From positions 1,178,001 to 1,242,000 of the forward strand of contig CDLV01000012.1 of the NCBI GenBank assembly GCA_001244265.2: DNA of 64,000 nt, in the 5' to 3' direction. The translations under genes were made by a program, and so were the position numbers. The notes below the pieces were generated by a model. That model was not told where the DNA came from. It saw only the letters and a list, made by a program, of their open reading frames with translations, and made no database searches. Shown one piece after another: positions 13,884 to 55,990 of the stretch (the stretch's first letter is position 1; every line of letters starts with the position of its first letter). This DNA comes from Microbotryum violaceum (lineage: Eukaryota).

Positions 13884-14536
13884 GGCTGGCCTTGATCGGT
13901 GATGGTGATGGTGGCGTCCGCTGGTGGACTCGCAAGTCACGCGCCTGCTTCTTTATGACTTGCGCTCTTGCGCCGCTCCGCTGAGCCGCTGAAATGGACC
14001 CGGATTGACCCGCTTTTGTAATGGGCGCGGCACCAGAGGAACTTTGTAATCCCTAATTGTGCCTGTTCTAGGCTGCGGCGCGCTCTTGAGCGCTCTCGTC
14101 CCCAAGGTCGTTCGACATCCTCTCACCGCACCTGTACCAACCCTAACAACACCTCAACACTACGACCGTACACGGCTCACCCCATCTTGCGTGACCACAC
14201 GTGTGGAACGCCTACGAGAAGCGCGTACCTTCCGCTCTAACGTTGGTGCGCCTCAGCTCTTCACTCAACGCTGCCCGGTGCGACGACGACGCGCGTGCTT
14301 GCGACCTTCACGTTCTCCAGGCGCGCGCCGCCACTCGCCTCGCCCTAAAAACAACAGACGCGAAGGTGAGTCATACGACCCTCCGTCATCATCGCCTGGC
14401 GTCTCACGGAGGAGCGTTGGGGTCGTTCAACATGCGCTCACACTCTTTACTCTCCCACTCCTCCCCGTAGCGTACTGAATAGATAGCGGAAGGGCCCAGG
14501 AACGTGATTGCGCCACCATCCCTCGCTCAACCCACG

Positions 14537-24316: not shown

Positions 24317-29336
<5,020 letters not shown>

Positions 29337-33370: not shown

Positions 33371-33444
33371 CGTGAGTTTGAGAACGTGAGTTCGTAATTT
33401 GTTTTTGACGCTTCTCAATCCTTACAAAAAAAAAAAAAATCCTC

Positions 33445-33594
33445 CGGATGTATCGGGTTGGTCTGTTCTGCTAGTTACAACGCATCAAGCGGCGGTTGTG
33501 GTCATCATCGTGCATGCTGGGTAGCATCTCCTTTAGTTCCGTAGGGGGTTTTCTCGTCTTGCAAATTAGCGATGAGTTTCATACAAAAAAAAAA
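33445..33594 (+). mobile_element. Non-LTR family B, ~140-bp 3'-end fragment with poly(A)
   Basis: Matches 52475-52629. Flanked on both sides by (A)n-TCCTC (TSD). Confidence 0.92.
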
Positions 33595-35752: not shown

Positions 35753-37508
35753 GCCCTACAGCACGAGCACGTGTGGTCGCGCGTGGGTCAGTTGCTCAAG
35801 GCGAAAGCCTTGCTGCCCAAGACCGCGTTGCGACCTGCTCGGATACCTCTCAAGGAGGCTCCCCGTCCTCGGTGCTTCAACTTCTTTGGGCTCACCCGAC
35901 CTTTTACGATTCGCAAGCTTCGTCGGCTTGTGAACGTGGTTCGGTTCCCAGGGAGGGAGGATCGTGTCAAGCGTTTCCGTGATGGGTCTTCTCAGAGCGA
36001 TAGGAAGCGCTTCTGGAGATGGCTTCATGACCGGTTCGCGTCTGCTGTGGAGCAGGACACCCACTGGCGGCTCATGTACGACGTGACGCCGACGCGCAAG
36101 AGGCAGCATACTCAGGGTCATGCCTCTTCGCCGACGTGTCTGTTCTGCGGCAAAGATGCAGCGGTCATCGAGACGGTGTCGCACTACTTCTTCGAGTGCG
36201 CGTACTCGACCAGCTTCTGGGGTGGGGTGCTTCGTATTCTGTTCGACAAGCTGGGCATCGAGGATACCGACGTCGATCCGTCGACGTTCACTCCGGAGCA
36301 GCTGACTATGGGGCTCCCCTTTTGCGGGGTCGTGGAGAACGACCTCGAAATGGATGTGGGTTCGGCTGGCTTGCGCGATCGGCTTCCAGCGGCTGCACCT
36401 GCTCCGCTGGCGCGTTCATCAGCGGTTCGAGCTGGACAAGGTCGTGGCCCCTCCCTCGCTCCCCAGTGCACTCAGAGCGTTCGAGCGAGATTTTCTCTCT
36501 CGAGCGGGTTTTGTGCCTGGGGCTCGAGATTGGGAGGTGTGATGACCGAGTTAAGTTCTTCCTTCCCATTTTCCTTCCCTCCTTTCCTCCCTTCTTTTTC
36601 GGAGGTCGACTCCTCTTTTAGAAGCTGACTGTCTTGAAACTTGTTGCGCAGTGGAAGGCTGCGCACCTCTCTCTCTCTCTCTCTCTCTACTTTGCGCAGT
36701 AGCGGTTTTTTGTTCTTGGATGGATCGGCAAGCCAGGTCGATTGTCTTTGCGTTGGAGGCTTTGTGAAGTTTTTCCCTCTCCTTTCCCCCTTTTTTCCCT
36801 TCCCTTCCTCTTCTCGTTCCTGTTGCTCGGTTGTTGACTACGCTTCAGCCACTTCTCCTTTTACTCCTAAGCCGTGTGTTGGATTCCGTTGAATGGTTCG
36901 TTCGTTCGCGTTGGTCAAGATCTACGGCATGGCTCGGGAAGGAAGGTCGCTCGTTTCTGGTCAATATCCTCGCGTCAAGGCGAGGCTCGTTTCGTTGTAC
37001 TGGATCGCTTTTCTCTCGGCCCCGATGGCTCAACAGCCAGCACTCGAGATTCAGCCAAGGGAGGACATCAGGCGCTGTCGGGGTGACGAGTAGCTGGGGC
37101 TTGGCTGCGGCCTGTTAGTCCCTGGGGACCTCTACCTCCGGCTTCGACCCCCTCCCTTGGCCCCTCGGGTGTGTTCCCCTCCTCTCTGTCTTAGTATTCC
37201 TGGTTCTCCGTATCCCCAGTCGTGACTTTCTGTATACTCTCCCCCTTCTTTCTCTAGGCGCTCTTGCCTGGTTTTCGAGTATCTTCGCTCCCGCGCTTGG
37301 GACGTGAAGCGGCAGCAGTACTCACCGCCCGTTGGAGTCCGCGTTAGGTGCTCGGCGGGTTTTGATCTGCGCAGCGCTCTTTGCGCGCAGGGGTTTGACT
37401 TTCACCCAACTGCTTGCCGTCGTTGCTTTATAACCTCCTTTAGCTCTTTTTGTAGCGGTCCCAGCCAACCCGAAGGATTGCAATTTATGAGCCCCAGTCA
37501 AAAAAAAA
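35753..37508 (+). mobile_element. Non-LTR family A, 5'-truncated copy 2
   Basis: Near-identical to 29718-31476; ends in poly(A). Confidence 0.95.
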
Positions 37509-37570
37509 CAGCCAAAACAGGGGGAACAGGAACTGGGGGCAATATGATGAACGTTTTCTACAAAAAAAAA
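37509..37570 (+). mobile_element. Non-LTR family C, ~55-bp 3'-end fragment with poly(A)
   Basis: Identical to 35691-35750. Confidence 0.9.
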
Positions 37571-37579
37571 TCAGCCAGA

Positions 37580-40500
37580 TTTTTTTTTTTTTTTTTTTTT
37601 TTTTGGTATGAAACTCATCGCTAATTTGCAAGACGAGAAAACCCCCTACGGAACTAAAGGAGATGCTACCCAGTATGCACGATGATGACCACAACCGCCG
37701 CTTGATGCGTTGTAACTAGCAGAACAGACCAACCCGATACATCCGAGTTCAAGTCCCCCCACCCACGGTTGCTCCCTCCCAGAGACGAATGAAAGGAAGA
37801 TTGAAGATTATACACAAGGAATCGGGAAAAGATGGATGAGTCGTTGGTGATGGTACATGTGTTGTACAGGCGAATCCGATTATAGTTGTACAGTTGAACC
37901 TTCTTCGATCTTTTGACTTCAGCCCCCCCTGAGACCGCCATACTCCTTGAAGCCCCTTAATTCTTTGAGACGCGTCGAACAAGGCCTCCGATGGCACAAA
38001 CATCCCGCTCAATCCAAATGATTCACGTGGTCCAAAGGGGGAATGTAACCCCCTGCGACCGCAGCAATCACATACCCCTTGTACCCGTCTGCGCTGGATC
38101 TCCACCGCGGATTCCAAACCCCTTTTCGGTTACCAAAGTCGGCCCCCCTCGCGACCGCACGACCCCAGATCACCCCCATTCCAATGACTGCAACTGCGAA
38201 ACAGGCCTACTTCGCACAAAAACACACAATCCAGAGATTTCCGGGGAAAGTCACGGAGCATGTGACAGTCCATTGGACACGCCTCGGTCGGGTGCAGCGC
38301 GGGCGGGTGGCCGTCAACACCGGCGCGCGGCTGGAGACAAGGGCGGGGTATACCTTCCGCAGGGGCCTCGCTTCCCTGCGGCGTACTCCCAATCTCGGAA
38401 CGCACACTCGAGTCCCCTTGTACGTGCAGGTGGTTCCCAATCACCGCAGATACTGGGGAAAGAAGGAGCATGAGGCCCACGACGGTGATGTCATTGGGTG
38501 GGACCTCGCTCGAGTGTGGATGTGTATGGCGGTTCGGTACCCGAGTCACCCGCCGCGCGGCCGCGACTCCGAGCGAGCAGCAAAGCAAGGAGAGGCGAGC
38601 CACGCAGGCAGTTTGTGCCGGCCTTGAACAGGAGATCACGGAGTCGCTCGACCGAAAGAGAAGACAGACCCGGCCCTTGAGAGGAGTGGAAAACTCACGG
38701 CATAGTCCAGGAGAGGGCCAAGGGGATCCGTTTTCGCTGTGTGTCATCGTGATGTGGCAGAAGCTCGAACCAAGGGCGACAATGCCCGCCGGCGCAAAGA
38801 ACCCGAGGCTCCTGGGGAGTACGGAAGCCTATGAGGAGGAATGGCAAAAAGAGCGAGAGAAAACAGGTCCAGTATTCTGGCGTGTTTGGGAGACATTTTG
38901 GAGATTGAGAAGGAGGGAAAAGGGACTTGTGATTTTTTGGGGGTTTGGTTTTTGCTTGGATAGGGAGGGAGCGCCATCTACTTCATCGCGCCAATCTGAG
39001 CTCCAACCTCTCCTTCAGTCCCGCCATCTCCTTGTCCATGCTCGACATCGCTCTGGCGTGGCGATGGAGATCCAAGCGTCGGTTGCTGAGAGTGTCGAGC
39101 GCCAGCGCAATGAAGGCGCGGATTGGACGCTTTTTCGACGTCGGAAGGCGAGCGCGCAGTCGAGGGAGGCCGTGCTCGATCTGAAGTGCCGTGTAGTCGA
39201 GGTCGAGGATCGACACGACCCCCAGCGCGTCGCAGATAATGGACCTAGCTGCTTGCCAAAATTGAGAAGAGTCAGGGCAATCATGCCAAAAGTGAGTAAA
39301 GTCATCCTCTACCCCTGCCAGGCTGCATGCCTGCACAAGGCAGCAGGCCGAGTCGCCATGCCGCTGCACAAACTGGCGCTTCCGCGTTGGCGTGAAGTGG
39401 TACGCCAGCTTGAAGTGCACCTCGCGCTCGCGGGCCGTGGCGGGCCCGGTGTGGAACCACCCCAGAAGAGTCGCCTTTCTTTGGGTGTGGCGAGTGATCC
39501 AGGGCGTTGTGTGTCGTCGAAACGTCGATGGTTGATGACGCGTCGAAGTCGCGCAATGGTGTAGGGTCTGTCCAAGCTCAACATTCTCCACTGATTAGCA
39601 AGCAAGGGGGCGGAGGGGAGGGGAAGTCTTTGATCAGGCATGCCGACCGGAGTCGCTCTGGGCAAGATGTGCTCGAGGGGACCGCCGGGCCGGGCTCCAG
39701 GTGCTCCAACGACACTAATGACGGGTGGTCGACGTGCGAGGACGGGAACAGGAGGCGGAAGCGGCGGGATGAAGCGATCGCCTGCGACCTGGATCCACGC
39801 CTGGACTTGATCGCGCTTCCATTGCCAAAGGTTGGACAGCTCCGAGCCGTCGCCTTGGGGATGCTTCTCAGGGGTCCAGGGCACCGTTGGAGCTGCGGGT
39901 ATTGAGCTCGAGCATAGATGTCAGCGATGGTGCGTTCGAAACTGAAATGCTTCGCCAAACGCTTATCCTGCTCCGAGAACGCCCGCGAGTCATGCAGACC
40001 CGGTTGGAGGGGGAAAGAGAAAGAAGATTGGAGACCGAAAGTTTGGCAGGATCGACGACGGCAGGGTAGCGTTCAGCGACCGAGAGCACCGCTCGCCAGC
40101 GGGGATGTAGCTCCCGGGGTGCGTCGGCGTTCCTCCACGTCCACAGATCCGCAGCAAAGTCAAAGGTCGGAAGCGCTCGCCGGATGGAACTCCGAGCCAG
40201 ATCGCCCCAAATCGCAGTTGACCCGCCGGCCAGCACATCCCAGATCCGTACCGAGACTGAATCCACCACATCCTGGATGCTCACGACGCTGAGACCGCCT
40301 CGCGCCCGTGCCGTGAAGACGACCGATTGCTTGTAGTCGCTGCGCCGCGGGCCTCCCTTCACAAAGTCAGCAAGCTTGCGCTCGATCGACTTGATCACGT
40401 CGGATGGCGGGATGTCGGCGGAGAGAGAGTGCAGCACCTTGGAGATGCCGTAGCAGTTAAGATAGAAAGCCCGGGTATGATGCGTCATCCATCGGTCGCG

Positions 40501-43500
40501 CACCGAGAGAATCACTCGATCAACCCTTCGCTCAAGATCATGGAATCCCAGCCTGTTGTTGCCGTCAGGCGCAAACTGGAGACCGATCCAGGGAAGAGAC
40601 TCGTCCGGTGCCACGAACGACAGTTTGGACAAGTCCGCGCGATCCCACAACGTCGCGCCCAATGGCATCACCACAGTTTTGTCGGTGTTTAGACGTCCGT
40701 TCGTCGCGAGTCGCCAATCCCGAGCTAACGCCTCGAGCGAAGCAATAGCTTCCGGCCCAGCAACAGCGACGACGGCGTCATCCGCGAACGCCAAATTGGT
40801 GATGCATCGAGTCTGCGGACGATGAGCCAGCTCCGGAAGAGTGATAGTCAGCGCAATGTTGCGTCGACTGAGAGAATCAAGGAAGGGTTGGAATACCACA
40901 TCCCAGACAGAAGAAGAGAGAGGATCGCCCTGGCCAAGACCGCACAGGAGTCGCACCGTCTCGGTGAGGAAACCGTTGACAATGTACCGCGCTGTGGACG
41001 TCTCGCCGTTGTAGAGCATCCGCAAGACGCGCTGGAAAGGTTCCGGCGCGCCGAGAGCCTCAAACACCGCAAAGACCCAGTCGTGCTCGACCATGTCGTA
41101 AGCCGAGCTCTGATCCAGGGAGAGGAGCGCTGCTGTCGGGAACTCTGCCCCACGACCCCTAATCTCATCGATCAGGAGCCGCAGATGCAAAGCCGCGTCC
41201 GCTGGTCTTCGCCCCTTGACGAACCCATGCTGTCCGGCCGGAAGAACATCGGGGAGGATCCGGTTCAGACGAGCCACGTAGACCTTGGTGAAGATCTTGT
41301 AGTCGCATTCCCGCAAGGTGATCGGACGATACGATTTGAGGTCGCACCGCGCTGCACCAGGTTTGTTGTGTTTGAACAAGAGGCGCACATTGGCCTGGCT
41401 CTGTTGTGGAGTAAGGGAGCCTCGAGTAATCAGCTCGTTGTAGGCTCGAGTCAAGAGAGGGGCCCAAAGCAGGGGGCAGGCTCGATACATCTCATAGGGG
41501 ACCCCTGAAGGACCCGGAGATCGACCTTCGTGCGTGGTTCGAATCGCTGCGAGCACCTCGGCCTCGCTGATGGGCTCGGCCAGAATGTCGACGTGCGAAT
41601 TCGAGAACCGCCGAAGGAAGCGAGCGTCGGAAAGCGGGTCGTCACAAGGTCTTGCTGATCTGATGGGTCCCAAGAGCTCATCCCGCATCGTCACGACCTG
41701 TTCCGGATCCTTCGCTTCGACAAGGTAGTGCTGCTGGAAATGAGAATGGGTGTGTTCGAGCGCGCGCTCAATGTCAGTGGTGAGCTCGCCATCAGCGAGC
41801 CGGATACTCTGAAACTTCACATCGCGGGACCGAGCAGCCAGTTTGGCATGTACCGGACGACTGAGACGTTCCTCGGATGCAATCTCGGGAACGTGCGCCC
41901 TGATCCGGGACTGCCTTGCTCGCTCGTTCACAAGCTTGGAGAGAGCGTCGTGGGTGTTCGTCCAGTCGATAATATCGAAGGGGCTCAGCACCCGACGAGA
42001 CTCAATGTCCTGCAGTCGAGATACCAGCATCATTTCGAGGGCGTTGCGCTCCCGAAACAGACGCCGAGACAGCTCGAGAGCTTGGACCCGAGACTCCGAG
42101 AGTACGCGCTGAAGGTCCGCGACCGGATCCCCAGACGGTGCCTGCTCAAGGAGACGAGTGACGAACTCCTTAAACTCGGCGTGTCTGAAGGTCGACGAGT
42201 TGATGCGGGTCAGAAAATGAGCCGCCTGGGGAAGGCAGAGCTCCTCTTCGACCTCGGCACCACTTGCGCGCAGCCTAAATGTGACCGTAACCGGTCGATG
42301 ATCCGACATGGATCGAGAGATATTGTACAGAGTAGAAGCAGAAACGACCCGTCGCTCGTGTCGCCGCTGCACCAGAACAAAGTCGATGCGCGCGCGCGAA
42401 ATGAGCTGGCCGTCCTTGCTGAGATGTGGGCGCGTGGTCGCCGGCGACAGTGGGTGCATGAGCCGAATGGCATCCGTGTACGCCCCGTCGAGCCGAGACA
42501 TAAGCACAGGCCAGTGGTGGGTGTTCGGGCGGTCCACCTGTTGCGCTCGATCCACCGCGGGAATAGGGCAGTCGTTGAGATCTCCCGCGATGAACCGAAT
42601 ATGAGAGGAGACGGTCGCCCGAAAGTGAAGGGAGGTGAAGAAGAGGAGGCGCTCGGCGGGTTGAACCGGAGCGTAGATATTGTTGAGTTCGACGACGTCC
42701 GTCGAACCCCGCACATCGAAGGTGGTCACGAGTAAGCGCCCGCCAAGAGACTGACACGTGCGACGATGACCACCGAGAAGAGGAGAAGAGCTTGGAATCA
42801 AAGTGAGGCAGTGTTGAGAAAAGTAAGCCTCGCCCTGGTGGGACTGGGCCTACTCGTGGCGTATGTGAGATTGTCGTGCTTTAGGAACATTATGTTCCTG
42901 GAGAAGGATAGCAGAAGGGGGAGGTGTGAGCGAAGTGAGATACGAAAGAAGCAGACGACGTCGTTCAGGGGTATTGAAGCCCCTGTTGACGTTCCAGGTC
43001 ATGATGATGAACTCAATCATTACGATCGCGCCTTCGTTGCAGCAGCAGCTCCCTTGATGGACAACATAGGTCCGAATGTGGGTGACGGGAGAGGGTCCGC
43101 AGCAGTCGATTCGTTCCAGTCCGATGTGCGCGCAACGCTGGTGAGACGCTGGATACGCTCGGACCGGCGAAGACCCTGGGAAGTTCCTTCTTCCACCTCC
43201 TGCTTGGGCTCGGGCTCGGGATCACACACTGGACCTGGAGACGGCGAAGGCATCCAACCGGTCACAGACGGGGTGCGGTCCAACTCGGTGATCTCATCGT
43301 ACAGACCGGCATCCTGTTTGCGCTCGCGATCCGACACACGATTCATCCAGTCGTCAGGAAGGCCGTCCATATCAAGCTGATGGTGACTGGCCGATCGGAA
43401 CCGCGTCAGCTCAGGGGTCGTCGAGACAACCTCAGGCATAGACCCCGTCTCGGCCGACTGCGATTCCCCTTCTTCCGCGTCACTCGTCTCCGTGTGTTCC

Positions 43501-45138
43501 TCCTGGTTCCCCTCCGCTCCGCGGTCCTGCAGATCCGACAGATCCGAAGGCTCCAACGGCGGCACCTCCTGCTGTGGTTCCAGCTGTGCCTCGACTACGC
43601 TCATCGCGTCCTTGTCGTCCGCGAGAGCCTGAGCGGGCTCCCCCTGCGCCTCTTCGGCCACGTCGCCGGCCAGACTTGCGAATGGGTTTGCGGCGACGAT
43701 GAAACCGCGAAGGGCGGATGCTGTGGGTGTAGAGCTTTGTGAACGAGCAGGGTAGACTCGTGGTGAGTTGTTAGTGTCCCTTGTGGGAGATGCGTTCTTC
43801 TTTGAACGCTTGGACGCGACAGGGGACATTGGGGGAGAGGGAGAGGCTACATCACCTCTGCGTTGTTTTTGGGGGTCGAGGTTTGCTCGATGCTGCTTTG
43901 GGGCTCGGCCTGGGGCCTTTGGTTGTTGTTATTTTTCTGGGCGGCCTGCTGACGCTGGACCGGCTTTTGAACGCAGTTGTCGGAGTGGCCTACAAAACCG
44001 CATCGGCGGCAGGAGGCTTCGGCCTCGTAGTCGTGGCGAAGGGGCGTGAGAGTTGCGAGTCGTCCTCGAAGGTCGATCCTCGTCGGTAGAACCTGTCGAA
44101 GTTGAGCACCGTTGTTTTTGAACAGATCGTCGTCGTCGAACTGGACGATGGCCGCGTAGTTTCCTCGAGCAACGAGATACGAGCCTTGAACGACTGTTAG
44201 AGGCTGCTGGAGTTGGAGCAAGTCGCACTTGTGGCCGTCCCCGGTAAGCTTGGCGACGACGCCTTGCAGTTTGCTCCAGAGGTCGTCATTCGTGTATTCA
44301 GCCTCAGGACTGATGATGAAACGCAGTTCGACGACGTTCTTGACGAACGCCAAGCGCTTGCGGACTTGGGCAAAGGAGCGTTTCCACTCGATCTTGGTCG
44401 CCGCGTCGTGGACTTGGTCGAGCGCCGCTGCGCTAGCGCAGCGCACCACGAACTTGAACCGGGTGTTGCCGTTTTGGATGATCGACTCCGGTGCGACTCT
44501 ATGGATGACTGGAGCGTATTTCTGGAGCTCGGGGGGAGGACAACTCCTGCGGGCAGGTTAAAACACAACGACGTGTCGGGCGACAGGGTACGGAGCACCT
44601 TCGAGTACAACTCGGACTTCTCGCGTTCAGTGGCCACACCGGTGTGTTCGAACGTGACTTCAAGAACGGCACCAGACGTGTCGGCGATTGGTTTCGTTGC
44701 ATTGAGTGCGCTAAAGCGCAGGGAGGTGGCCCGGTCCTTGCCGAAGCCGAGTGCTTCTTTGAGCACAAGGATGCGGGTGCCCTGGCGTGTGCCATCTTCG
44801 ACACTGATCATCTTCAGGATCCTCGCGACATCCTCCTTCCTCTTCTTCTCTTCATCACGCTTTTCCTGGTACAGCGCTAGGCCGGGGTTCCCTGGTCCCT
44901 CGGCGGCATCGGCCTCCGCCCCCGCGTCACCACGTAGTTGCCCCGTCGCTGCCGGCTCCGGAGGGCCGCGGCCCGGATCAGGCGGTGCCTGGTCGGACAT
45001 TGGGTCGATAGCTGATGTAGCGGTTGATGTATTCGATGTATTGACGTTTGCCGAGGTAGGGTAGTGCGATTGAGATGAAAGATGAAAGATGAAAGATGAA
45101 AGATGAAAGATGAAAGATGAAGATGAAAGATGAAAGAT
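37580..45138 (-). mobile_element. Full-length non-LTR family B element (left arm of palindrome)
   Basis: On the minus strand: 5' (CATCTTT)n, ORF1 45000-43020, ORF2 43020-38983 (APE endonuclease, RT, Cys/His motif), 1.4-kb 3' UTR, A25 tail. Confidence 0.95.
45074..45138. repeat. (GATGAAA)n microsatellite forming the palindrome spacer and the 5' end of the left element
   Basis: About 9 units, seen directly. Confidence 0.95.
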
Positions 45139-45218
45139 ATGTATCTCAATCGCACTACCCTACCTTGGCAAACGTCAATACATCGAATACATCAACCGCT
45201 ACATCAGCTATCGACCCA

Positions 45219-47199
45219 ATGTCCGACCAGGCACCGCCTGATCCGGGCCGCGGCCCTCCGGAGCCGGCAGCGACGGGGCAACTACGTGGTGACGCGGGGG
45301 CGGAGGCCGATGCCGCCGAGGGACCAGGGAACCCCGGCCTAGCGCTGTACCAGGAAAAGCGTGATGAAGAGAAGAAGAGGAAGGAGGATGTCGCGAGGAT
45401 CCTGAAGATGATCAGTGTCGAAGATGGCACACGCCAGGGCACCCGCATCCTTGTGCTCAAAGAAGCACTCGGCTTCGGCAAGGACCGGGCCACCTCCCTG
45501 CGCTTTAGCGCACTCAATGCAACGAAACCAATCGCCGACACGTCTGGTGCCGTTCTTGAAGTCACGTTCGAACACACCGGTGTGGCCACTGAACGCGAGA
45601 AGTCCGAGTTGTACTCGAAGGTGCTCCGTACCCTGTCGCCCGACACGTCGTTGTGTTTTAACCTGCCCGCAGGAGTTGTCCTCCCCCCGAGCTCCAGAAA
45701 TACGCTCCAGTCATCCATAGAGTCGCACCGGAGTCGATCATCCAAAACGGCAACACCCGGTTCAAGTTCGTGGTGCGCTGCGCTAGCGCAGCGGCGCTCG
45801 ACCAAGTCCACGACGCGGCGACCAAGATCGAGTGGAAACGCTCCTTTGCCCAAGTCCGCAAGCGCTTGGCGTTCGTCAAGAACGTCGTCGAACTGCGTTT
45901 CATCATCAGTCCTGAGGCTGAATACACGAATGACGACCTCTGGAGCAAACTGCAAGGCGTCGTCGCCAAGCTTACCGGGGACGGCCACAAGTGCGACTTG
46001 CTCCAACTCCAGCAGCCTCTAACAGTCGTTCAAGGCTCGTATCTCGTTGCTCGAGGAAACTACGCGGCCATCGTCCAGTTCGACGACGACGATCTGTTCA
46101 AAAACAACGGTGCTCAACTTCGACAGGTTCTACCGACGAGGATCGACCTTCGAGGACGACTCGCAACTCTCACGCCCCTTCGCCACGACTACGAGGCCGA
46201 AGCCTCCTGCCGCCGATGCGGTTTTGTAGGCCACTCCGACAACTGCGTTCAAAAGCCGGTCCAGCGTCAGCAGGCCGCCCAGAAAAATAACAACAACCAA
46301 AGGCCCCAGGCCGAGCCCCAAAGCAGCATCGAGCAAACCTCGACCCCCAAAAACAACGCAGAGGTGATGTAGCCTCTCCCTCTCCCCCAATGTCCCCTGT
46401 CGCGTCCAAGCGTTCAAAGAAGAACGCATCTCCCACAAGGGACACTAACAACTCACCACGAGTCTACCCTGCTCGTTCACAAAGCTCTACACCCACAGCA
46501 TCCGCCCTTCGCGGTTTCATCGTCGCCGCAAACCCATTCGCAAGTCTGGCCGGCGACGTGGCCGAAGAGGCGCAGGGGGAGCCCGCTCAGGCTCTCGCGG
46601 ACGACAAGGACGCGATGAGCGTAGTCGAGGCACAGCTGGAACCACAGCAGGAGGTGCCGCCGTTGGAGCCTTCGGATCTGTCGGATCTGCAGGACCGCGG
46701 AGCGGAGGGGAACCAGGAGGAACACACGGAGACGAGTGACGCGGAAGAAGGGGAATCGCAGTCGGCCGAGACGGGGTCTATGCCTGAGGTTGTCTCGACG
46801 ACCCCTGAGCTGACGCGGTTCCGATCGGCCAGTCACCATCAGCTTGATATGGACGGCCTTCCTGACGACTGGATGAATCGTGTGTCGGATCGCGAGCGCA
46901 AACAGGATGCCGGTCTGTACGATGAGATCACCGAGTTGGACCGCACCCCGTCTGTGACCGGTTGGATGCCTTCGCCGTCTCCAGGTCCAGTGTGTGATCC
47001 CGAGCCCGAGCCCAAGCAGGAGGTGGAAGAAGGAACTTCCCAGGGTCTTCGCCGGTCCGAGCGTATCCAGCGTCTCACCAGCGTTGCGCGCACATCGGAC
47101 TGGAACGAATCGACTGCTGCGGACCCTCTCCCGTCACCCACATTCGGACCTATGTTGTCCATCAAGGGAGCTGCTGCTGCAACGAAGGCGCGATCGTAA
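45219..47199 (+). CDS. Family B ORF1 (gag-like, CCHC-type knuckle); two 1-bp homopolymer frameshifts
   Basis: CRRCGFVGHSDNC. Homologous to family D ORF1 (LRFSALNA..LEVT..H..EKSEL...LSP). Frames join if one C is added near 45685 and one A near 46350. Confidence 0.8.
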
Positions 47200-50100
47200 T
47201 GATTGAGTTCATCATCATGACCTGGAACGTCAACAGGGGCTTCAATACCCCTGAACGACGTCGTCTGCTTCTTTCGTATCTCACTTCGCTCACACCTCCC
47301 CCTTCTGCTATCCTTCTCCAGGAACATAATGTTCCTAAAGCACGACAATCTCACATACGCCACGAGTAGGCCCAGTCCCACCAGGGCGAGGCTTACTTTT
47401 CTCAACACTGCCTCACTTTGATTCCAAGCTCTTCTCCTCTTCTCGGTGGTCATCGTCGCACGTGTCAGTCTCTTGGCGGGCGCTTACTCGTGACCACCTT
47501 CGATGTGCGGGGTTCGACGGACGTCGTCGAACTCAACAATATCTACGCTCCGGTTCAACCCGCCGAGCGCCTCCTCTTCTTCACCTCCCTTCACTTTCGG
47601 GCGACCGTCTCCTCTCATATTCGGTTCATCGCGGGAGATCTCAACGACTGCCCTATTCCCGCGGTGGATCGAGCGCAACAGGTGGACCGCCCGAACACCC
47701 ACCACTGGCCTGTGCTTATGTCTCGGCTCGACGGGGCGTACACGGATGCCATTCGGCTCATGCACCCACTGTCGCCGGCGACCACGCGCCCACATCTCAG
47801 CAAGGACGGCCAGCTCATTTCGCGCGCGCGCATCGACTTTGTTCTGGTGCAGCGGCGACACGAGCGACGGGTCGTTTCTGCTTCTACTCTGTACAATATC
47901 TCTCGATCCATGTCGGATCATCGACCGGTTACGGTCACATTTAGGCTGCGCGCAAGTGGTGCCGAGGTCGAAGAGGAGCTCTGCCTTCCCCAGGCGGCTC
48001 ATTTTCTGACCCGCATCAACTCGTCGACCTTCAGACACGCCGAGTTTAAGGAGTTCGTCACTCGTCTCCTTGAGCAGGCACCGTCTGGGGATCCGGTCGC
48101 GGACCTTCAGCGCGTACTCTCGGAGTCTCGGGTCCAAGCTCTCGAGCTGTCTCGGCGTCTGTTTCGGGAGCGCAACGCCCTCGAAATGATGCTGGTATCT
48201 CGACTGCAGGACATTGAGTCTCGTCGGGTGCTGAGCCCCTTCGATATTATCGACTGGACGAACACCCACGACGCTCTCTCCAAGCTTGTGAACGAGCGAG
48301 CAAGGCAGTCCCGGATCAGGGCGCACGTTCCCGAGATTGCATCCGAGGAACGTCTCAGTCGTCCGGTACATGCCAAACTGGCTGCTCGGTCCCGCGATGT
48401 GAAGTTTCAGAGTATCCGGCTCGCTGATGGCGAGCTCACCACTGACATTGAGCGCGCGCTCGAACACACCCATTCTCATTTCCAGCAGCACTACCTTGTC
48501 GAAGCGAAGGATCCGGAACAGGTCGTGACGATGCGGGATGAGCTCTTGGGACCCATCAGATCAGCAAGACCTTGTGACGACCCGCTTTCCGACGCTCGCT
48601 TCCTTCGGCGGTTCTCGAATTCGCACGTCGACATTCTGGCCGAGCCCATCAGCGAGGCCGAGGTGCTCGCAGCGATTCGAACCACGCACGAAGGTCGATC
48701 TCCGGGTCCTTCAGGGGTCCCCTATGAGATGTATCGAGCCTGCCCCCTGCTTTGGGCCCCTCTCTTGACTCGAGCCTACAACGAGCTGATTACTCGAGGC
48801 TCCCTTACTCCACAACAGAGCCAGGCCAATGTGCGCCTCTTGTTCAAACACAACAAACCTGGTGCAGCGCGGTGCGACCTCAAATCGTATCGTCCGATCA
48901 CCTTGCGGGAATGCGACTACAAGATCTTCACCAAGGTCTACGTGGCTCGTCTGAACCGGATCCTCCCCGATGTTCTTCCGGCCGGACAGCATGGGTTCGT
49001 CAAGGGGCGAAGACCAGCGGACGCGGCTTTGCATCTGCGGCTCCTGATCGATGAGATTAGGGGTCGTGGGCAGAGTTCCCGACAGCAGCGCTCCTCTCCC
49101 TGGATCAGAGCTCGGCTTACGACATGGTCGAGCACGACTGGGTCTTTGCGGTGTTTGAGGCTCTCGGCGCGCCGGAACCTTTCCAGCGCGTCTTGCGGAT
49201 GCTCTACAACGGCGAGACGTCCACAGCGCGGTACATTGTCAACGGTTTCCTCACCGAGACGGTGCGACTCCTGTGCGGTCTTGGCCAGGGCGATCCTCTC
49301 TCTTCTTCTGTCTGGGATGTGGTATTCCAACCCTTCCTTGATTCTCTCAGTCGACGCAACATTGCGCTGACTATCACTCTTCCGGAGCTGGCTCATCGTC
49401 CGCAGACTCGATGCATCACCAATTTGGCGTTCGCGGATGACGCCGTCGTCGCTGTTGCTGGGCCGGAAGCTATTGCTTCGCTCGAGGCGTTAGCTCGGGA
49501 TTGGCGACTCGCGACGAACGGACGTCTAAACACCGACAAAACTGTGGTGATGCCATTGGGCGCGACGTTGTGGGATCGCGCGGACTTGTCCAAACTGTCG
49601 TTCGTGGCACCGGACGAGTCTCTTCCCTGGATCGGTCTCCAGTTTGCGCCTGACGGCAACAACAGGCTGGGATTCCATGATCTTGAGCGAAGGGTTGATC
49701 GAGTGATTCTCTCGGTGCGCGACCGATGGATGACGCATCATACCCGGGCTTTCTATCTTAACTGCTACGGCATCTCCAAGGTGCTGCACTCTCTCTCCGC
49801 CGACATCCCGCCATCCGACGTGATCAAGTCGATCGAGCGCAAGCTTGCTGACTTTGTGAAGGGAGGCCCGCGGCGCAGCGACTACAAGCAATCGGTCGTC
49901 TTCACGGCACGGGCGCGAGGCGGTCTCAGCGTCGTGAGCATCCAGGATGTGGTGGATTCAGTCTCGGTACGGATCTGGGATGTGCTGGCCGGCGGGTCAA
50001 CTGCGATTTGGGGCGATCTGGCTCGGAGTTCCATCCGGCGAGCGCTTCCGACCTTTGACTTTGCTGCGGATCTGTGGACGTGGAGGAACGCCGACGCACC

Positions 50101-51237
50101 CCGGGAGCTACATCCCCGCTGGCGAGCGGTGCTCTCGGTCGCTGAACGCTACCCTGCCGTCGTCGATCCTGCCAAACTTTCGGTCTCCAATCTTCTTTCT
50201 CTTTCCCCCTCCAACCGGGTCTGCATGACTCGCGGGCGTTCTCGGAGCAGGATAAGCGTTTGGCGAAGCATTTCAGTTTCGAACGCACCATCGCTGACAT
50301 CTATGCTCGAGCTCAATACCCCGCAGCTCCAACGGTGCCCTGGACCCCTGAGAAGCATCCCCAAGGCGACGGCTCGGAGCTGTCCAACCTTTGGCAATGG
50401 AAGCGCGATCAAGTCCAGGCGTGGATCCAGGTCGCAGGCGATCGCTTCATCCCGCCGCTTCCGCCTCCTGTTCCCGTCCTCGCACGTCGACCACCCGTCA
50501 TTAGTGTCGTTGGAGCACCTGGAGCCCGGCCCGGCGGTCCCCTCGAGCACATCTTGCCCAGAGCGACTCCGGTCGGCATGCCTGATCAAAGACTTCCCCT
50601 CCCCTCCGCCCCCTTGCTTGCTAATCAGTGGAGAATGTTGAGCTTGGACAGACCCTACACCATTGCGCGACTTCGACGCGTCATCAACCATCGACGTTTC
50701 GACGACACACAACGCCCTGGATCACTCGCCACACCCAAAGAAAGGCGACTCTTCTGGGGGTGGTTCCACACCGGGCCCGCCACGGCCCGCGAGCGCGAGG
50801 TGCACTTCAAGCTGGCGTACCACTTCACGCCAACGCGGAAGCGCCAGTTTGTGCAGCGGCATGGCGACTCGGCCTGCTGCCTTGTGCAGGCATGCAGCCT
50901 GGCAGGGGTAGAGGATGACTTTACTCACTTTTGGCATGATTGCCCTGACTCTTCTCAATTTTGGCAAGCAGCTAGGTCCATTATCTGCGACGCGCTGGGG
51001 GTCGTGTCGATCCTCGACCTCGACTACACGGCACTTCAGATCGAGCACGGCCTCCCTCGACTGCGCGCTCGCCTTCCGACGTCGAAAAAGCGTCCAATCC
51101 GCGCCTTCATTGCGCTGGCGCTCGACACTCTCAGCAACCGACGCTTGGATCTCCATCGCCACGCCAGAGCGATGTCGAGCATGGACAAGGAGATGGCGGG
51201 ACTGAAGGAGAGGTTGGAGCTCAGATTGGCGCGATGA
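47199..51237 (+). CDS. Family B ORF2 (APE endonuclease + reverse transcriptase), disrupted
   Basis: MIEFIIMTWNVNRG, LLQE, NIYAP, AGDLN, ARIDF, SDHRPV; SPGPSG, YRPITL, QGDPLS, FADD. In-frame TAG at 47367-47369 and homopolymer frameshifts near 49070 and 50205. Confidence 0.9.
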
Positions 51238-52629
51238 AGTAGATGGCGCTCCCTCCCTATCCAAGCAAAAACCAAACCCCCAAAAAATCACAAGTCCCTT
51301 TTCCCTCCTTCTCAATCTCCAAAATGTCTCCCAAACACGCCAGAATACTGGACCTGTTTTCTCTCGCTCTTTTTGCCATTCCTCCTCATAGGCTTCCGTA
51401 CTCCCCAGGAGCCTCGGGTTCTTTGCGCCGGCGGGCATTGTCGCCCTTGGTTCGAGCTTCTGCCACATCACGATGACACACAGCGAAAACGGATCCCCTT
51501 GGCCCTCTCCTGGACTATGCCGTGAGTTTTCCACTCCTCTCAAGGGCCGGGTCTGTCTTCTCTTTCGGTCGAGCGACTCCGTGATCTCCTGTTCAAGGCC
51601 GGCACAAACTGCCTGCGTGGCTCGCCTCTCCTTGCTTTGCTGCTCGCTCGGAGTCGCGGCCGCGCGGCGGGTGACTCGGGTACCGAACCGCCATACACAT
51701 CCACACTCGAGCGAGGTCCCACCCAATGACATCACCGTCGTGGGCCTCATGCTCCTTCTTTCCCCAGTATCTGCGGTGATTGGGAACCACCTGCACGTAC
51801 AAGGGGACTCGAGTGTGCGTTCCGAGATTGGGAGTACGCCGCAGGGAAGCGAGGCCCCTGCGGAAGGTATACCCCGCCCTTGTCTCCAGCCGCGCGCCGG
51901 TGTTGACGGCCACCCGCCCGCGCTGCACCCGACCGAGGCGTGTCCAATGGACTGTCACATGCTCCGTGACTTTCCCCGGAAATCTCTGGATTGTGTGTTT
52001 TTGTGCGAAGTAGGCCTGTTTCGCAGTTGCAGTCATTGGAATGGGGGTGATCTGGGGTCGTGCGGTCGCGAGGGGGGCCGACTTTGGTAACCGAAAAGGG
52101 GTTTGGAATCCGCGGTGGAGATCCAGCGCAGACGGGTACAAGGGGTATGTGATTGCTGCGGTCGCAGGGGGTTACATTCCCCCTTTGGACCACGTGAATC
52201 ATTTGGATTGAGCGGGATGTTTGTGCCATCGGAGGCCTTGTTCGACGCGTCTCAAAGAATTAAGGGGCTTCAAGGAGTATGGCGGTCTCAGGGGGGGCTG
52301 AAGTCAAAAGATCGAAGAAGGTTCAACTGTACAACTATAATCGGATTCGCCTGTACAACACATGTACCATCACCAACGACTCATCCATCTTTTCCCGATT
52401 CCTTGTGTATAATCTTCAATCTTCCTTTCATTCGTCTCTGGGAGGGAGCAACCGTGGGTGGGGGGACTTGAACTCGGATGTATCGGGTTGGTCTGTTCTG
52501 CTAGTTACAACGCATCAAGCGGCGGTTGTGGTCATCATCGTGCATACTGGGTAGCATCTCCTTTAGTTCCGTAGGGGGTTTTCTCGTCTTGCAAATTAGC
52601 GATGAGTTTCATACAAAAAAAAAAAAAAA

Positions 52630-53093
52630 TCGGCCAAGGGAGGACATCAGGCGCTGTCGGGGTGACGAGTAGCTGGGGCTTGGCTGCGGCCTGTTAGTCC
52701 CTGGGGACCTCTACCTCCGGCTTCGACCCCCTCCCTTGGCCCCTCGGGTGTGTTCCCCTCCTCTCTGTCTTAGTATTCCTGGTTCTCCGTATCCCCAGTC
52801 GTGACTTTCTGTATACTCTCCCCCTTCTTTCTCTAGGCGCTCTTGCCTGGTTTTCGAGTATCTTTGCTCCCGCTCTTGGGACGTGAAGCGGCAGCAGTAC
52901 TCACCGCCCGTTGGAGTCCGCGTTAGGTGCTCGGCGGGTTTTGATCTGCGCAGCGCTCTTTGCGCGCAGGGGTTTGACTTTCACCCAACTGCTTGCCGTC
53001 GTTGCTTTATAACCTCCTTTAGCTCTTTTTGTAGCGGTCCCAGCCAACCCGAAGGATTGCAATTTATGAGCCCCAGTCAAAAACAAAAAAAAA
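52630..53093 (+). mobile_element. Non-LTR family A, 3'-UTR fragment with poly(A)
   Basis: Matches 31018-31476. Confidence 0.93.
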
Positions 53094-55990
53094 CACCTCA
53101 CCTCACTTCACTTCACTTCACTTCACTTCACTTCACTTCACTTCACTTCACTTCACTTCGCCCTACCGCAGTCTTCGATACTCGAGTTAACAAGTGATAC
53201 ACCGACAAGATGTCTACAGGAGACCCTGGGTCCCCACCGCCGGCACCGCCACCACCGGTGTCCGCCACCAGTGTCCAGCCACCCGGCGACCAGATCCCGA
53301 TAAGCTCGAAGAAGACGCAAGTCACGGGCCCTGCCACCGCCGCACCCAACTATGCCGCCGCACCCAACTATGCCGCCGCTGCGAGTCAGGCGACTCAGTC
53401 ACCTGAACAACAGCAACAACAACAACAGCGTGCCAAGGCTCTGGGCAGCCTCCTACAAGCCATGGGTGCTGTACCCGGAAACCGCATGGATCGTTGGGTC
53501 CAGGCCATCTACTTCGCCTAACTCTACCCCGTCGCCACCGCCACATCGCTGAAATTCTCGGCCTTGAACGCGAACCGGTCTGTCGAGAACATCTTTGATT
53601 ACGCCCTTGAAGTGACTCTGTCTCACCAGAGCGCCTCGCGAGCGTCTCATGCCGACAAGACCGATCTCGTGGCCTGCGTCACGAGGCTGTTATCGCCGAT
53701 CTCTCCTATCTGCTTTGAGCCTGGAGTTCCTCTGCCGGACCACCTTGCAGCCTATCGACCACAGATCCTAGGCGTACAACATTCATCAATCCTGCGTAAT
53801 GGGGCGGCTCACCATCGCGTTACCGTTGGGTTCGTCACCGGCGAGGCACGTGACGCTGCGCTTACGACGCCCCCTGCTCTCACTTGGCGATCGGCGAAGG
53901 CCCGCTTCGCGAAATCTCACAGGTTCCACCATAACATCGTCGAGCTTCGAATCAACGTCGGTGTTCAAGGAGTGCCTTCCATGGATGCCATCATCAAATC
54001 GTTCCAATTACTAGTGCAGGACTTGTCAGGCAAGGGACATTCGTGCCAACTTGTGCAGGTTCTGCGCATTATCAGCGTGGACAACGCCTCGGCCTTTGCC
54101 CACGTTGCCGGAGACTACTCAGCTTTCCTACACTTCGATGACGACTCCCTGTCCAAATTTACGGACGGGCAAGTGCCAGCAAGCTCAGCAACTTCAAATC
54201 TTTCCTCTACCCCCTTGGAGCTTTTCGGGATCGGTCGATCACCCCAGATCTCGGGACCTGGCGTCTCAGCGATTCGCAGTTTCGCTTATTGCGGGCCTCC
54301 AAAACGTTCGCGAACTCCTTTTTGCCGACGACGCTTGCTGCGCACTCCACAACCTCTCGGACCTCGACCACCTCAATCGGGCGATCGAGCTTTACGAACG
54401 GGCAAGTGCCAGCAAGCTCAGCAACGCCAAATCTTTCCTCTACCCCCTTGGAGCTTTTCGGGATCGGTCGATCACCCCAGATCTCGGGACCTGGCGTCTC
54501 AGCGATTCGCAGTTTCGCTACCTTGGTATTCAGGTCGGGGTGGAGATCGCTGAGGATGCGGGCTGGGAAGATGTCAAGGCCTTGACCATCGCTCGGATAC
54601 GCTCGATTCCGATGTACGATCTCCCATATGCAGCCAAGTGTTCGATCATCAACATCTACTGCTACACAAAGATCTTGTACTACAGCCGATTCCTTCCCGC
54701 CCCCAAGAGCGTTGTCAAGGAGATCGAGGAGGCCGCCATGCTCGCCATTCACGGTCGAGCTTCGGATGGTACTCAGCGACGTCCGAAGGTCTCCCGGTCG
54801 CGCCTCTGCACCCCTCTCAATCACGACGGCTTCGGTTTGATTGATCTGCCTCGGCGTCTAGCAATCGATCACGCGAAGTGGGTCTTCCAGCTCCGGGCCC
54901 CGGACGGCTGCTTCACACGCCACCTCTTCGACATCCGCATCCGCCTCCAGGCACCAAACGAACCAACCCCTTTCACCTTGTCCAGACCGGCCCCCAACCA
55001 GCATCGTTGCCCTTGGATTTGGATCTGGTGGGCATACTTTTGCCATCCTCCCCAAAGTGGGACCATGCGATGAGAAAAACGACAAAACTTCTTCCTGCTC
55101 GTTGGGTCCGATACTTCGAAGCCTGGGCGTTGGTGACCACGCTCAACCCCCCGGAACTCTCCAAGAGCCAGAACCTCGAGCAATGGGCGACGCACGTACT
55201 CTATTTCCCAGCGGGCCACGGAATACAACTCTCGGTAAACCCGACGCTTTTTCGAGGGCCCGATGGCAAGGTGATGACCCCGTCTTCGTTTGTGAACGCG
55301 TCCAAACGCCACCAAGTCTTCATCTTCCCCCTTATCTTCCCAAGGGACACCAGAAGGTATTCGATCTGCCTGAGCAACGCTGGAACGCTTGGTGGAAGGC
55401 TTTGCGCAAGGTTCGCCGGGTTCACTCGGACGCCGAGGATACCGGCCACCTTCTCTCCCTGGAGTCCCTCCATCCGGGAAGCCAAGTCGCCTCCCCAACC
55501 AGCCCACATCCCAACAATCGATCTACCTCCTGTGTGATGTGCCTCTCGAAGCACCTGAGTGCCTGGTTCACCTTGCGGTCGGCTGCCCATTTGCCCGGCG
55601 CCTCTGGTCTGCTCTGTCCCCGACCCCCACCCAGTCTTTGTGGACTTTGTATGCCCGGTCGTGTCTTGCTCGGAACGTCGACTTGTCGAACTACGAGTCC
55701 TCTTCTTTCACTCGATCTGGAAGCTCTGTCGTCGTCGTCGATTCTCGTCGGATCTTTTGGAACCGATCACCGAAACGGAGTTCGAGGGGCTTCGAGCCTC
55801 TATCCAGGAGCCCAAGGGTCGCCTAGTGTCTCTGTAAGACACCAAAGGGGGTTTTAGTGGGTATGGTTGATCCTGGTTCAGGGTCAATGAGTCCTACACT
55901 ACTGGCTTCTGCCAGTGTGCGTAACAGCATTCCCTCCGACTTTTCCGAAGATTTCTAGGTATTAATATAATTATGCTGTTAATGAAGTCC

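Follow-up and report, generated by a model that had tools for sequence, protein, structure and literature searches.

Two LINE copies head to head within one TSD in a Microbotryum fungus: structure and candidate origins

Introduction

How can two complete copies of one LINE come to stand head to head, as almost perfect mirror images, inside a single TSD? The question is raised by a locus of an anther-smut fungus of the genus Microbotryum, in a window of 64 kb (the whole stretch of DNA analysed here), where two copies of the element LINE-B form the arms of a palindrome around a short spacer. The initial annotation ascribed this unit to a single insertion, either by snap-back copying of one cDNA or by TPRT on both strands. 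The first part of that proposal agrees with the bounding of the unit by one TSD and with the lesions that its arms share. In our assessment it is probable that the palindrome is real and that it was made, as a rare by-product, in one retrotransposition-coupled event. The more specific reading that we put forward, one TPRT event of a defective L1-like LINE with snap-back copying, is tentative.

Structure of the palindrome

The inverted arms extend from 37590 to 45076 (minus strand) and from 45143 to 52629 (plus strand), with 66 nt between their inner ends; the features of the locus are collected in Table 1. A repeat search resolved them into four collinear inverted blocks, each 100% complementary (37591-45076 against 45143-52629), and gapped blastn of arm against arm aligned 7,489 columns at 99.933% identity, the exceptions being 1 mismatch and 4 gaps. 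The near-perfect arms and 66-bp spacer first described for the locus are thus confirmed, as are the differences announced between the arms (at least one substitution and a few 1-bp indels), which amount to one substitution and four one-base indels. No other inverted repeat of comparable length occurs within the window, the next longest measuring 360 nt. Two full LINE-B bodies (7,487 nt) are present, the inverted one with a tail of its own.

Table 1. Features of the palindromic locus and its surroundings (positions in the window).
Feature	Position	Strand	Description
Ordinary LINE-B insertion	33445-33594	+	150 bp, 5'-truncated; flanked by a perfect A(n)TCCTC duplication
Repeat X, second copy	37511-37570	+	60 bp, ends in A9; left flank; 100% identical to 35691-35750
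Left TSD copy	37562-37577	+	A9 + TCAGCCA
GA dinucleotide	37578-37579	+	Between left TSD copy and T-run; mirror of TC after right poly(A)
Left arm tail	37580-37604	-	Poly(A), T25 on + strand
Left arm LINE-B body	37605-45076	-	Antisense; longest open frame 993 aa (39871-42849, -)
Spacer	45077-45142	-	66 bp; 7-nt microsatellite, 9.6 copies, 96% matches
Right arm LINE-B body	45143-52614	+	Sense; ORF1 region ~45408-47193, ORF2 ~47196-51234
Right arm tail	52615-52629	+	A15; poly(A) merged with A-run of right TSD copy
Right TSD copy	52630-52636	+	TCGGCCA, initial 7 nt of LINE-A fragment A3
LINE-A fragment A3	52630-53093	+	3' 458 bp and tail; right flank; insertion at its 5' edge
Shared in-frame stop, right arm	47367-47369	+	Element position 2225, EN part of ORF2
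Shared in-frame stop, left arm	42850-42852		Same element position
Arm difference 1	37605		Extra G adjoining T-run, left arm
Arm difference 2	39460 vs 50760		Left arm one C fewer
Arm difference 3	39897 vs 50322		Left arm one G fewer
Arm difference 4	41148 vs 49070		Left arm one C more
Arm difference 5	45053 vs 45166		Substitution: G vs complement of T; right arm TCG>TTG in sense

Every internal indel lies inside a G/C run. Homopolymer lengths are unreliable in this assembly, and some of the four differences (out of five) that are one-base gaps in G/C runs may be consensus errors. At the substitution the mirrored bases are non-complementary, 24 nt from the centre of the palindrome, and of the 426 TCG/CGA sites in the right arm only one is not the same in the left.

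The spacer reads (AGATGAA)n on the plus strand and (TTTCATC)n on the minus strand; it is non-palindromic, and its heptamer phase is kept where the left arm begins in sense. In a contig of the public run X7, from another organism, this microsatellite borders the LINE 5' end and is followed by TCTCAA(A)TCG, about 10 nt that are the inverse of the arm end and are read from one 30-nt loose-end consensus of two records (agreement 0.7); these inverted nucleotides hint at a native hairpin at the LINE 5' end where cDNA could snap back. Since the spacer is in phase with the left arm and adjoins the LINE 5' end elsewhere, the two arms are not equivalent, and the spacer is best read as natural sequence of the element, not neutral filler. 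A 10-bp stem closing the 66-nt loop is predicted at -5.5 kcal/mol as single-stranded DNA (z -3.5); the arms pair right up to the spacer, so that a primer within the window is indistinguishable from its copy. The heptamer array has no further copies in the window, the 19-nt motif beyond the X7 microsatellite has no match there with up to 3 mismatches, and the arm end joined to the microsatellite has none in metagenome collections that hold no fungal genomes. No inner TSD is present at the centre.

Identity of LINE-B and lesions common to both arms

Judged from its sequence, LINE-B is an L1-like LINE of the Microbotryum fungus, probably of the EN+RT type. The 993-aa frame of the left arm matches Pfam RVT_1 (4.1e-21), as a non-LTR-type reverse transcriptase does, and its closest solved structures are L1 ORF2p and then R2. 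Human L1 ORF2p (8uw3) aligns with query residues 47-762 (1.3e-23), beginning at chain residue ~100, within the EN part of ORF2p. Exo_endo_phos falls below the cut-off on this frame (E 0.21), and PF03372 is present in several relatives of 42-84% identity (for example P0003, P0005 and P0026). The Pfam search of the ORF1 region and of the 1.4-kb 3' region found no domain. A Penelope-like element is ruled out by the order of the nearest structures and by Pfam, which reports no GIY-YIG domain for LINE-B. The hallmarks of LINEs are found at the locus: poly(A) tails of 25 and 15 nt, a TSD, and a 5'-truncated copy elsewhere in the window, the 3' end of which agrees with the state of the right arm.

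Both arms carry the same in-frame stop and, relative to homologous proteins, the same frame changes at element positions ~547, ~1207 and ~5065. The nonsense codon and three frameshifts originally noted as shared are therefore all present in both arms, but some of these apparent frameshifts are possibly consensus errors in G/C runs. At position 42850, in the stop codon, contigs from all four public runs compared have a different base; in run X17, 7396.7 of a depth of 8594 reads another base.

Target site and flanks

The whole palindromic unit is bounded by a single 16-nt duplication, A9TCRGCCA, which substantiates the TSD-like pair proposed for it (A9TCAGCCA on the left, A(n)TCGGCCA on the right). 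The two 7-mers agree at six of seven positions, with G in the right copy and A in the left copy and in the LINE-A copies A1 and A2; the probability that a given 7-mer matches with at most one mismatch is 0.0013 per offset. The TCAGCCA of the left TSD is the LINE-A family state at 37051-37057. The 7-mer is also the start of a LINE-A fragment, so repeat X and A3 were once adjacent, and the insertion target is, as the flanks read, the junction of X (at its A9 end) with the 5'-truncated LINE-A copy A3. The latter is 99.1% like 37051-37508 and has a probable TSD of its own, CAAAAAAAAA. The X copies at 35691-35750 and 37511-37570 flank the LINE-A copy A2 (35753-37510), and the palindrome sits in a nest of other retroelements with 99% identical repeats. 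The flanks, annotated at first as distinct, do differ beyond 2 nt, but they are repeat copies on both sides and not unique DNA.

The target of the unit (..TAC-A9-TC..) is of the same site type as that of the ordinary copy (..TAC, then A(n)TCCTC). At the right junction, which is canonical, the A-run of the target abuts the poly(A). The symmetry of the arms stops 2 nt beyond the tails, and the extra GA on the left mirrors the TC on the right, both as annotated; such a mirror would arise by chance in 1 of 16 cases.

Public sequencing contigs

The right flank was queried against public sequencing runs and returned 23 runs, 22 of them with matches, all as Logan contigs. The best run covers 0.76 of the right-flank words, and the source strain may not be among these runs. 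The contigs of four of the 23 (X1, X17, X6 and X7) were compared with 36600-45240, apart from the left junction (37571-37614, repeat). Among the contigs listed for these four runs, none bridges arm, spacer and arm, and they neither confirm nor refute the centre or the left junction.

Origin of the palindrome

In the snap-back reading, reverse transcription would have started at the right junction as in canonical TPRT, from the A-run of the target on poly(A), and the cDNA would have reached the 5' end of the RNA. There its 3' end may have folded on the inverted repeat of about 10 nt, the 5' microsatellite flanked by this repeat becoming the 66-nt loop. The folded end would then have primed a copying of the cDNA on itself that passed the T-run and took in 2 nt of the primer (GA/TC). 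The self-copied end would have been joined to the other target end, and replication of the hairpin strand would have given two mirror arms. The shared stop codon and frame breaks would come from a single template, the two substitutions would have arisen later, as CpG or copying errors, and the one-base indels would mostly be consensus noise. In this reading the palindrome is very young.

Several observations agree with such a course of events. A reverse-complement copy is fused at the element 5' end, and the target is joined to antisense sequence. Snap-back into the primer predicts symmetry reaching 2 nt past the tails, and the GA/TC mirror thus supports it. One substitution in 7,487 nt together with shared private lesions is most simply explained by one template, the more so for a defective RNA, which has to be mobilised in trans. 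Other observations count against it. A faithful snap-back copy should share tail and border with its template; the lengths of T25 and A15 and the extra G at 37605 do not fit this. The spacer lies in sense with the left arm, and the opposite orientation is expected if copying started from the canonical right arm; to account for the orientation seen, recombination between the arms would have to have flipped it afterwards, or the left arm would have to have been made first, from a non-canonical primer. One of seven positions differs between the TSD copies, against one substitution in 7,487 between the arms, and none of the contigs listed for the four runs bridges arm, spacer and arm. Most organisms do not stably maintain perfect palindromes with arms of 7.5 kb, and an artefact is for that reason more likely a priori.

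The unequal tails and body/tail borders look as if they came from two separate initiations, and this is what double priming would provide. In this 'twin priming on the tail', reverse transcription would start on poly(A) from both staggered nicks, the bottom-strand T-run canonically giving the right arm and the top-strand ..GCCA with 2 filler nt the left arm, with two RNAs as templates or a single RNA that served for both; the cDNA 3' ends would pair or template-jump at the 5' inverted repeat, each serving as the other's second-strand template. The complete 5' microsatellite on the left arm, and not on the right, fits this course, as does the bounding of the unit by one TSD, and a second nick acting as primer is the accepted basis of twin priming. 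In the available part of a preprint on human L1 an intermediate with cDNA on both break ends is described (bioRxiv 10.1101/2024.12.14.628481), and twin-priming insertions that carry small duplications where the inversion joins have been published (PMC12350158, from the part at hand). We nevertheless consider double priming rather unlikely. It requires that two defective RNAs with identical private lesions met at one site or that a single RNA was used again; no T is available at the top-strand end for pairing with poly(A); GA would mirror TC only by chance; and the exact end of the right arm at the microsatellite border is unexplained unless the inverted repeat mediated the joint.

Misassembly, in which a chimeric or fold-back read or a wrong join would have doubled a single LINE-B copy or combined two from different sites, is unlikely. 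The one-base differences all lie in G/C runs, as in a weakly polished long-read consensus, the locus is a nest of nearly identical repeats, the centre and left junction are confirmed by no contig among those listed, and long perfect palindromes are generally rare and unstable. A fold-back read, however, would mirror one flank and would lack an asymmetric spacer, whereas the flanks here differ and carry the TSD, the 66-bp spacer is natural element sequence, 45053 and 45166 are non-complementary and the tails are unequal; nor can the left junction (X-TCAGCCA-GA-T25-LINE 3' end) be derived by folding a single sense insertion. A simple fold-back read is rejected on the asymmetry of flanks and spacer, and the argument made earlier against a fold-back artefact is reinforced by the asymmetric spacer and by the non-complementary pair close to the centre.

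A later inverted duplication at the DNA level is improbable. An ordinary sense LINE-B insertion would have been doubled during replication or break repair, a nascent strand folding at the 5' hairpin, copying past the tail and switching back. The inverted repeat and microsatellite make a plausible stall or fold-back site, the self-complementary GGCC in the TSD could offer microhomology for the return switch, and inverted duplications at L1 sites primed by self-annealed 3' ends are described in the accessible part of the same preprint (10.1101/2024.12.14.628481). Both breakpoints fall within 2 nt of the element ends, a coincidence unexpected for replication-based events, and a GGCC joint predicts TCGGCCGA-T(n), whereas TCAGCCAGA-T25 is observed.

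Two independent opposite LINE-B insertions, for which inverted tandems formed by double insertion of other transposon classes in Drosophila give a precedent (PMC5932611, as far as the part at hand goes), or read-through RNA from a source already palindromic, which would make every junction canonical, are together highly improbable: independent double insertion is rejected, as a central TSD is absent and private lesions are common to the two arms, which are 99.93% identical; in the read-through route a perfect hairpin RNA of 7.5 kb would serve RT poorly as template, and the origin would only be shifted to another locus.

Comparison with known systems

L1 twin priming, reportedly described by Ostertag and Kazazian in 2001, resembles the locus in that inverted and direct LINE segments lie head to head in one TSD and the 3' end of the second nick is involved. 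There the second primer anneals within the RNA, each part of which is normally found once; the LINE-B palindrome contains the entire 7.5-kb element twice, including a second poly(A) tail, so that inverted and direct parts within one TSD are found here and single copying of each RNA segment is not. The initial statement that twin priming does not explain the unit holds for the doubled body with its own tail, but small duplications at the joint are already in print (PMC12350158, available part).

R2-mediated insertions in human cells give a precedent for snap-back: there, as the accessible parts of two reports put it, the 3' end of the cDNA serves as primer for a strand complementary to it, also when the cDNA is full-length (PMC11371274, PMC11331408). 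These PRINT R2 snap-back 5' junctions likewise join upstream target to antisense insert, but they come from short junction reads of an engineered RLE-type system, whereas LINE-B is a natural and probably APE-type fungal LINE copied back to its tail and 2 nt past it. Penelope-like pLTR structures also have inverted copies in one TSD and palindromes at the inverted joint, which their authors read as self-priming in the part of the paper at hand (PMC3846280). They differ in RT clade and in their GIY-YIG nuclease, and their inverted part is a short 5'-truncated pLTR found as a rule of the family (PMC3846280); the LINE-B structure involves an L1-like element and a full-length inverted copy, and was seen once. 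Human L1 fold-back junctions in cells and tumours place a polyadenylated L1 at the centre of an inverted structure, with hairpin priming that uses 2-bp microhomology, according to the available text (bioRxiv 10.1101/2024.12.14.628481). There, flanking chromosome DNA is duplicated, the same flank appears twice and copy number changes; here, in contrast, doubling is confined to the element, and the flanks belong to the opposite sides of one target.

At the level of titles and abstract openings, the literature yielded no account of two full-length LINEs head to head inside a single TSD. If it arose as proposed, the palindrome would add a variant to the non-canonical TPRT products already known.

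Significance

For repeat annotation the locus advises caution, since flanks that looked unique proved to be copies of repeats, and consensus noise may account for several of the apparent frameshifts. Mu killer of maize, an inverted transposon duplication, silences its own family, and a long inverted duplication of a mobile element such as the present one could likewise give hairpin RNA, although the analogy is functional only. It seems improbable to us that an element-encoded 5' hairpin makes LINE-B structurally prone to mirror dimers, integrated in one step, and the locus a self-made silencer of its family; if this were true, a transcribed 7.5-kb inverted pair would yield long dsRNA in a fungus with RNAi and RIP-like defences.

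If real, the locus would be a natural, fully sequenced and complete head-to-head LINE dimer inside one TSD. Snap-back or double-priming side reactions, so far known at the level of junctions, from engineered R2 insertions and human L1 rearrangements, would then occur in a wild fungal genome and over a full 7.5-kb element. The dimer would also offer a datable substrate (one substitution per 7.5 kb) for the survival of long palindromes in fungi, and for asking whether a RIP-like process acts on them and whether RNA silencing of the family starts from dimers of this kind.

Structure of the palindrome

A repeat search of the window resolved the two head-to-head copies of the element LINE-B into four inverted blocks in collinear order, all of them 100% complementary (37591-45076 versus 45143-52629), whose inner ends lie 66 nt apart; none of the window's other inverted repeats exceeds 360 nt. 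In a gapped alignment the arms are 99.933% identical over 7,489 columns, with one mismatch and four gaps, and all indel sites fall in G/C runs. The initial annotation had described near-perfect inverted LINE arms around a 66-bp spacer, differing by the substitution at 45053/45166 and a few 1-bp indels, and both analyses bear this out (one substitution, four indels). Four indels to one substitution is an atypical outcome of real mutation.

The spacer (45077-45142) consists of 9.6 copies of the heptamer AGATGAA, an array with no further copy elsewhere in the window. Its minus strand, (TTTCATC)n, continues without loss of phase into the left arm, whose sense start reads ATCTCAATCG..; between spacer and right arm there is no repeat-phase continuity. 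A contig of 1,829 nt from X7, a public sequencing run labelled as a different organism, extends through the LINE (43901 to the 5' end) and 46 nt of this microsatellite into 605 nt that do not resemble the window. Because this loose end starts with TCTCAAATCG.., an inverted near-copy of the last 10 nt of the arm (two records, agreement 0.7), it tentatively suggests that LINE-B natively has, at its 5' end, a 10-nt inverted repeat enclosing the microsatellite. Such a 10-bp stem with a 66-nt loop is predicted to fold, as single-stranded DNA, at -5.5 kcal/mol (z -3.5).

Features of the palindrome, its flanks and other parts of the window. Extra contig bases are those present in the Logan contigs of public runs X1, X17, X6 and X7 relative to the window.
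Feature	Position	Description
Left arm tail	37580-37604	T25
Right arm tail	52615-52629	A15
Arm difference	37605	extra G in left arm, beside T-run
Arm difference	39460 vs 50760	left arm one C shorter
Arm difference	39897 vs 50322	left arm one G shorter
Arm difference	41148 vs 49070	left arm one C longer
Arm difference	45053 (G) vs 45166 (T)	substitution; sense strand TCG left, TTG right
Extra contig base	38142, 40008	both arms; all listed contig depth, 4/4 runs
Extra contig base	37754, 37922, 43870, 44530	both arms; window state in part of X17 depth
Window state also in part of X6 depth	37754, 43870	
Extra contig base	39459, 39896	specific to left arm; majority of depth
Extra contig base	36785	left flank, outside arms; 1 or 2 contigs each in X1, X17, X6; none in X7
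LINE-A copy A1	29718-31477	
LINE-A copy A2	35753-37510	
LINE-A copy A3	52630-53093	5'-truncated, 458 bp; probable TSD 10 nt, CAAAAAAAAA
Microsatellite (CACTT)13	53094-53159	directly after A3
Older LINE-B fragment	31480-32942	element 5754-7450, internally deleted, 90-93% identical to arms; directly after A1 tail, a further LINE-A/LINE-B junction in the nest
Copia-type LTR retrotransposon	24317-29337	LTRs 24317-24595 and 29058-29337, 99-100% identical; gag-pol one open 1,153-aa frame, minus strand, 25640-29101
Open frame	14483-17854 (+)	1,123 aa, in 62% G+C stretch; no Pfam match at E <= 0.001

Target site and flanks

The repeat X (35691-35750), which ends in ..TCTAC-A9, is perfectly repeated at 37511-37570, to the left of the unit, and the two copies flank A2; a 60-bp direct repeat around this 1.76-kb copy would be unusually long for a target-site duplication (TSD). 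At 52630-53087 the right flank shares 99.1% identity with 37051-37508 and with 31018-31480; it corresponds to the 3' 458 bp of LINE-A, a second poly(A) retroelement with a zf-RVT domain. The flanks had been called distinct, and they are two different sides of one target, but both are repeat copies (X and LINE-A). In X1 and X17 the LINE-A flank (36600-37570) has a greater contig depth than LINE-B, and loose ends are numerous at 37504-37518; of the two families, LINE-A is the commoner in these runs.

In A1 as in A2 the homologous stretch is TCAGCCAAGGGAGG, so the pre-insertion site was X directly abutting the truncated A3. The unit is preceded by X(A9)-TCAGCCA-GA-T25 and followed by A15-TCGGCCA-AGGGAGG..; A9 together with the opening 7 nt of A3 occurs as a duplication on either side of the unit, 6/7 alike. 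The mismatched base is G in the right copy and A in the left copy and the LINE-A family, and for a 7-mer, agreement at six or more positions has a probability of 0.0013 per offset. These junction sequences uphold both the single TSD-like pair proposed around the unit (A(n)TCAGCCA left, A(n)TCGGCCA right) and the description of the extra GA on the left as the mirror of the TC after the right tail.

The interval 33425-33599 holds an ordinary 150-bp 5'-truncated LINE-B insertion (33445-33594) flanked by perfect copies of A(n)TCCTC, after ..TAC. Its 3' end reads ..CATAC-A(n); the insertion defines the LINE-B target, ..TAC/A(n)TC.., and 3' end. Because the right arm agrees with this copy in target type and 3' end, its junction reads as canonical target-primed reverse transcription, with one TSD bounding the unit.

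Identity and lesions of LINE-B

The right-arm frames match Pfam RVT_1 in two pieces, and a 993-aa frame of the left arm matches RVT_1 at 4.1e-21, with an Exo_endo_phos match below threshold. Human L1 ORF2p (8uw3) aligns to the latter frame (1.3e-23, residues 47-762), and R2 proteins align more weakly. A search at E <= 0.001 yielded 96 proteins; the top matches, 84-90% identical, carry the names of Microbotryum silenes-dioicae, M. saponariae and M. intermedium, which places the window in a Microbotryum anther-smut fungus. Judged from sequence, LINE-B is an L1-like LINE with an RT and a probable EN; it has a 3' region of ~1.4 kb after ORF2, as homologous proteins stop at element position 6092.

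The nonsense codon and three frameshifts ascribed to both arms were recovered, the former as a stop in frame at 47367-47369 (right) and 42850-42852 (left), element position 2225, and the latter as frame changes relative to homologues at ~547, 1207 and 5065. The contigs of X1, X6 and X7 and 7396.7/8594 of X17 depth carry a different base at 42850, and the stop codon is a private substitution, present at most in a minority of contig depth. At each of the three internal one-base differences between the arms, one arm retains the homologues' frame: the left at element ~3928, the right at ~5180 and ~5618.

At nine places the public contigs have one base more than the window, always G or C in a G/C run, a pattern suggestive of homopolymer gaps of one base in the assembly, some of them also present in part of contig depth. 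Position 41148 has no row among the contig differences listed, so that, as far as listed, the contigs match the left arm there. Because the window state occurs in part of contig depth at gap sites, at least some gaps common to both arms would be real variants of family copies; the other common gaps, and probably the arm-specific ones, may be long-read consensus errors.

The copia-type element is probably young and intact, given its near-identical LTRs and open gag-pol frame.

Age and origin of the palindrome

Both substitutions lie on the right half of the structure, one at TSD position 3 and the other, C>T in sense, at 45166. This second change turns TCG into TTG, as expected at targets of a RIP-like process described for Microbotryum (PMC10502011). 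Of the 426 TCG/CGA sites in the right arm, only 1 has a different state in the left arm, so the palindrome is very young. Canonical right priming, one TSD and a symmetry ending 2 nt past the tails argue that the doubling was part of the integration event itself.

In a snap-back reaction, the 3' end of one cDNA would prime copying of the same cDNA and generate mirror arms. Such a reaction would account for the mirrored GA and TC and for the private lesions common to both arms, derived from a defective RNA that would need mobilisation in trans; the hairpin-prone 5' end of LINE-B is a candidate primer. Precedents come from R2-mediated insertions in human cells, in which the cDNA 3' end primes cDNA-complementary synthesis, also after full-length cDNA, and antisense insert is found joined to target DNA (PMC11371274, PMC11331408), and from Penelope-like elements, whose head-to-head inverted copies in one TSD are read as self-priming (PMC3846280). 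Less compatible with snap-back are the tails of 25 versus 15 nt, the extra base at 37605 and a spacer in sense with the non-canonical left arm, which would require either a later flip by inter-arm recombination or a left-arm-first order. Double priming, with reverse transcription primed at both nicks, would explain the unequal tails and unequal 5' ends, but it requires two identical defective RNAs and leaves the GA filler to a chance match.

It is unlikely that a misassembly or fold-back read made the palindrome. A fold-back or missed-adapter read shows one flank mirrored on both sides, no asymmetric natural spacer and complementary mirrored bases. The initial argument against such an artefact holds: the flanks come from opposite sides of a single target, the spacer has its sense on one strand only, 45053 and 45166, 24 nt from the centre, are not complementary, and the tails are unequal. 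Moreover, the left junction (X-TSD-GA-T25-LINE 3' end) is not derivable by folding a single sense-oriented insertion. Weighing the other way, no arm-spacer-arm bridge occurs among the Logan contigs listed for X1, X17, X6 and X7 (best share 0.76 in the run search with the right flank). Later DNA-level fold-back of an inserted LINE-B copy would have to respect both element ends and is unlikely.

Relation to known systems

Twin priming has the same geometry, but unlike the palindrome it involves neither full duplication nor a second tail. R2 snap-back junctions share the chemistry proposed for LINE-B but belong to an engineered system, and Penelope inverted pLTRs are similar in architecture but represent a different element class. 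L1 fold-back rearrangements duplicate flanks, whereas the element is duplicated here (10.1101/2024.12.14.628481). Among the papers listed by the literature searches, none described a complete LINE dimer arranged head to head in one TSD, judged largely from titles and abstract openings. The palindrome at present constitutes one case, from an assembly with visible homopolymer noise; if validated by reads, it would offer a striking example for the study of how retrotransposons integrate.
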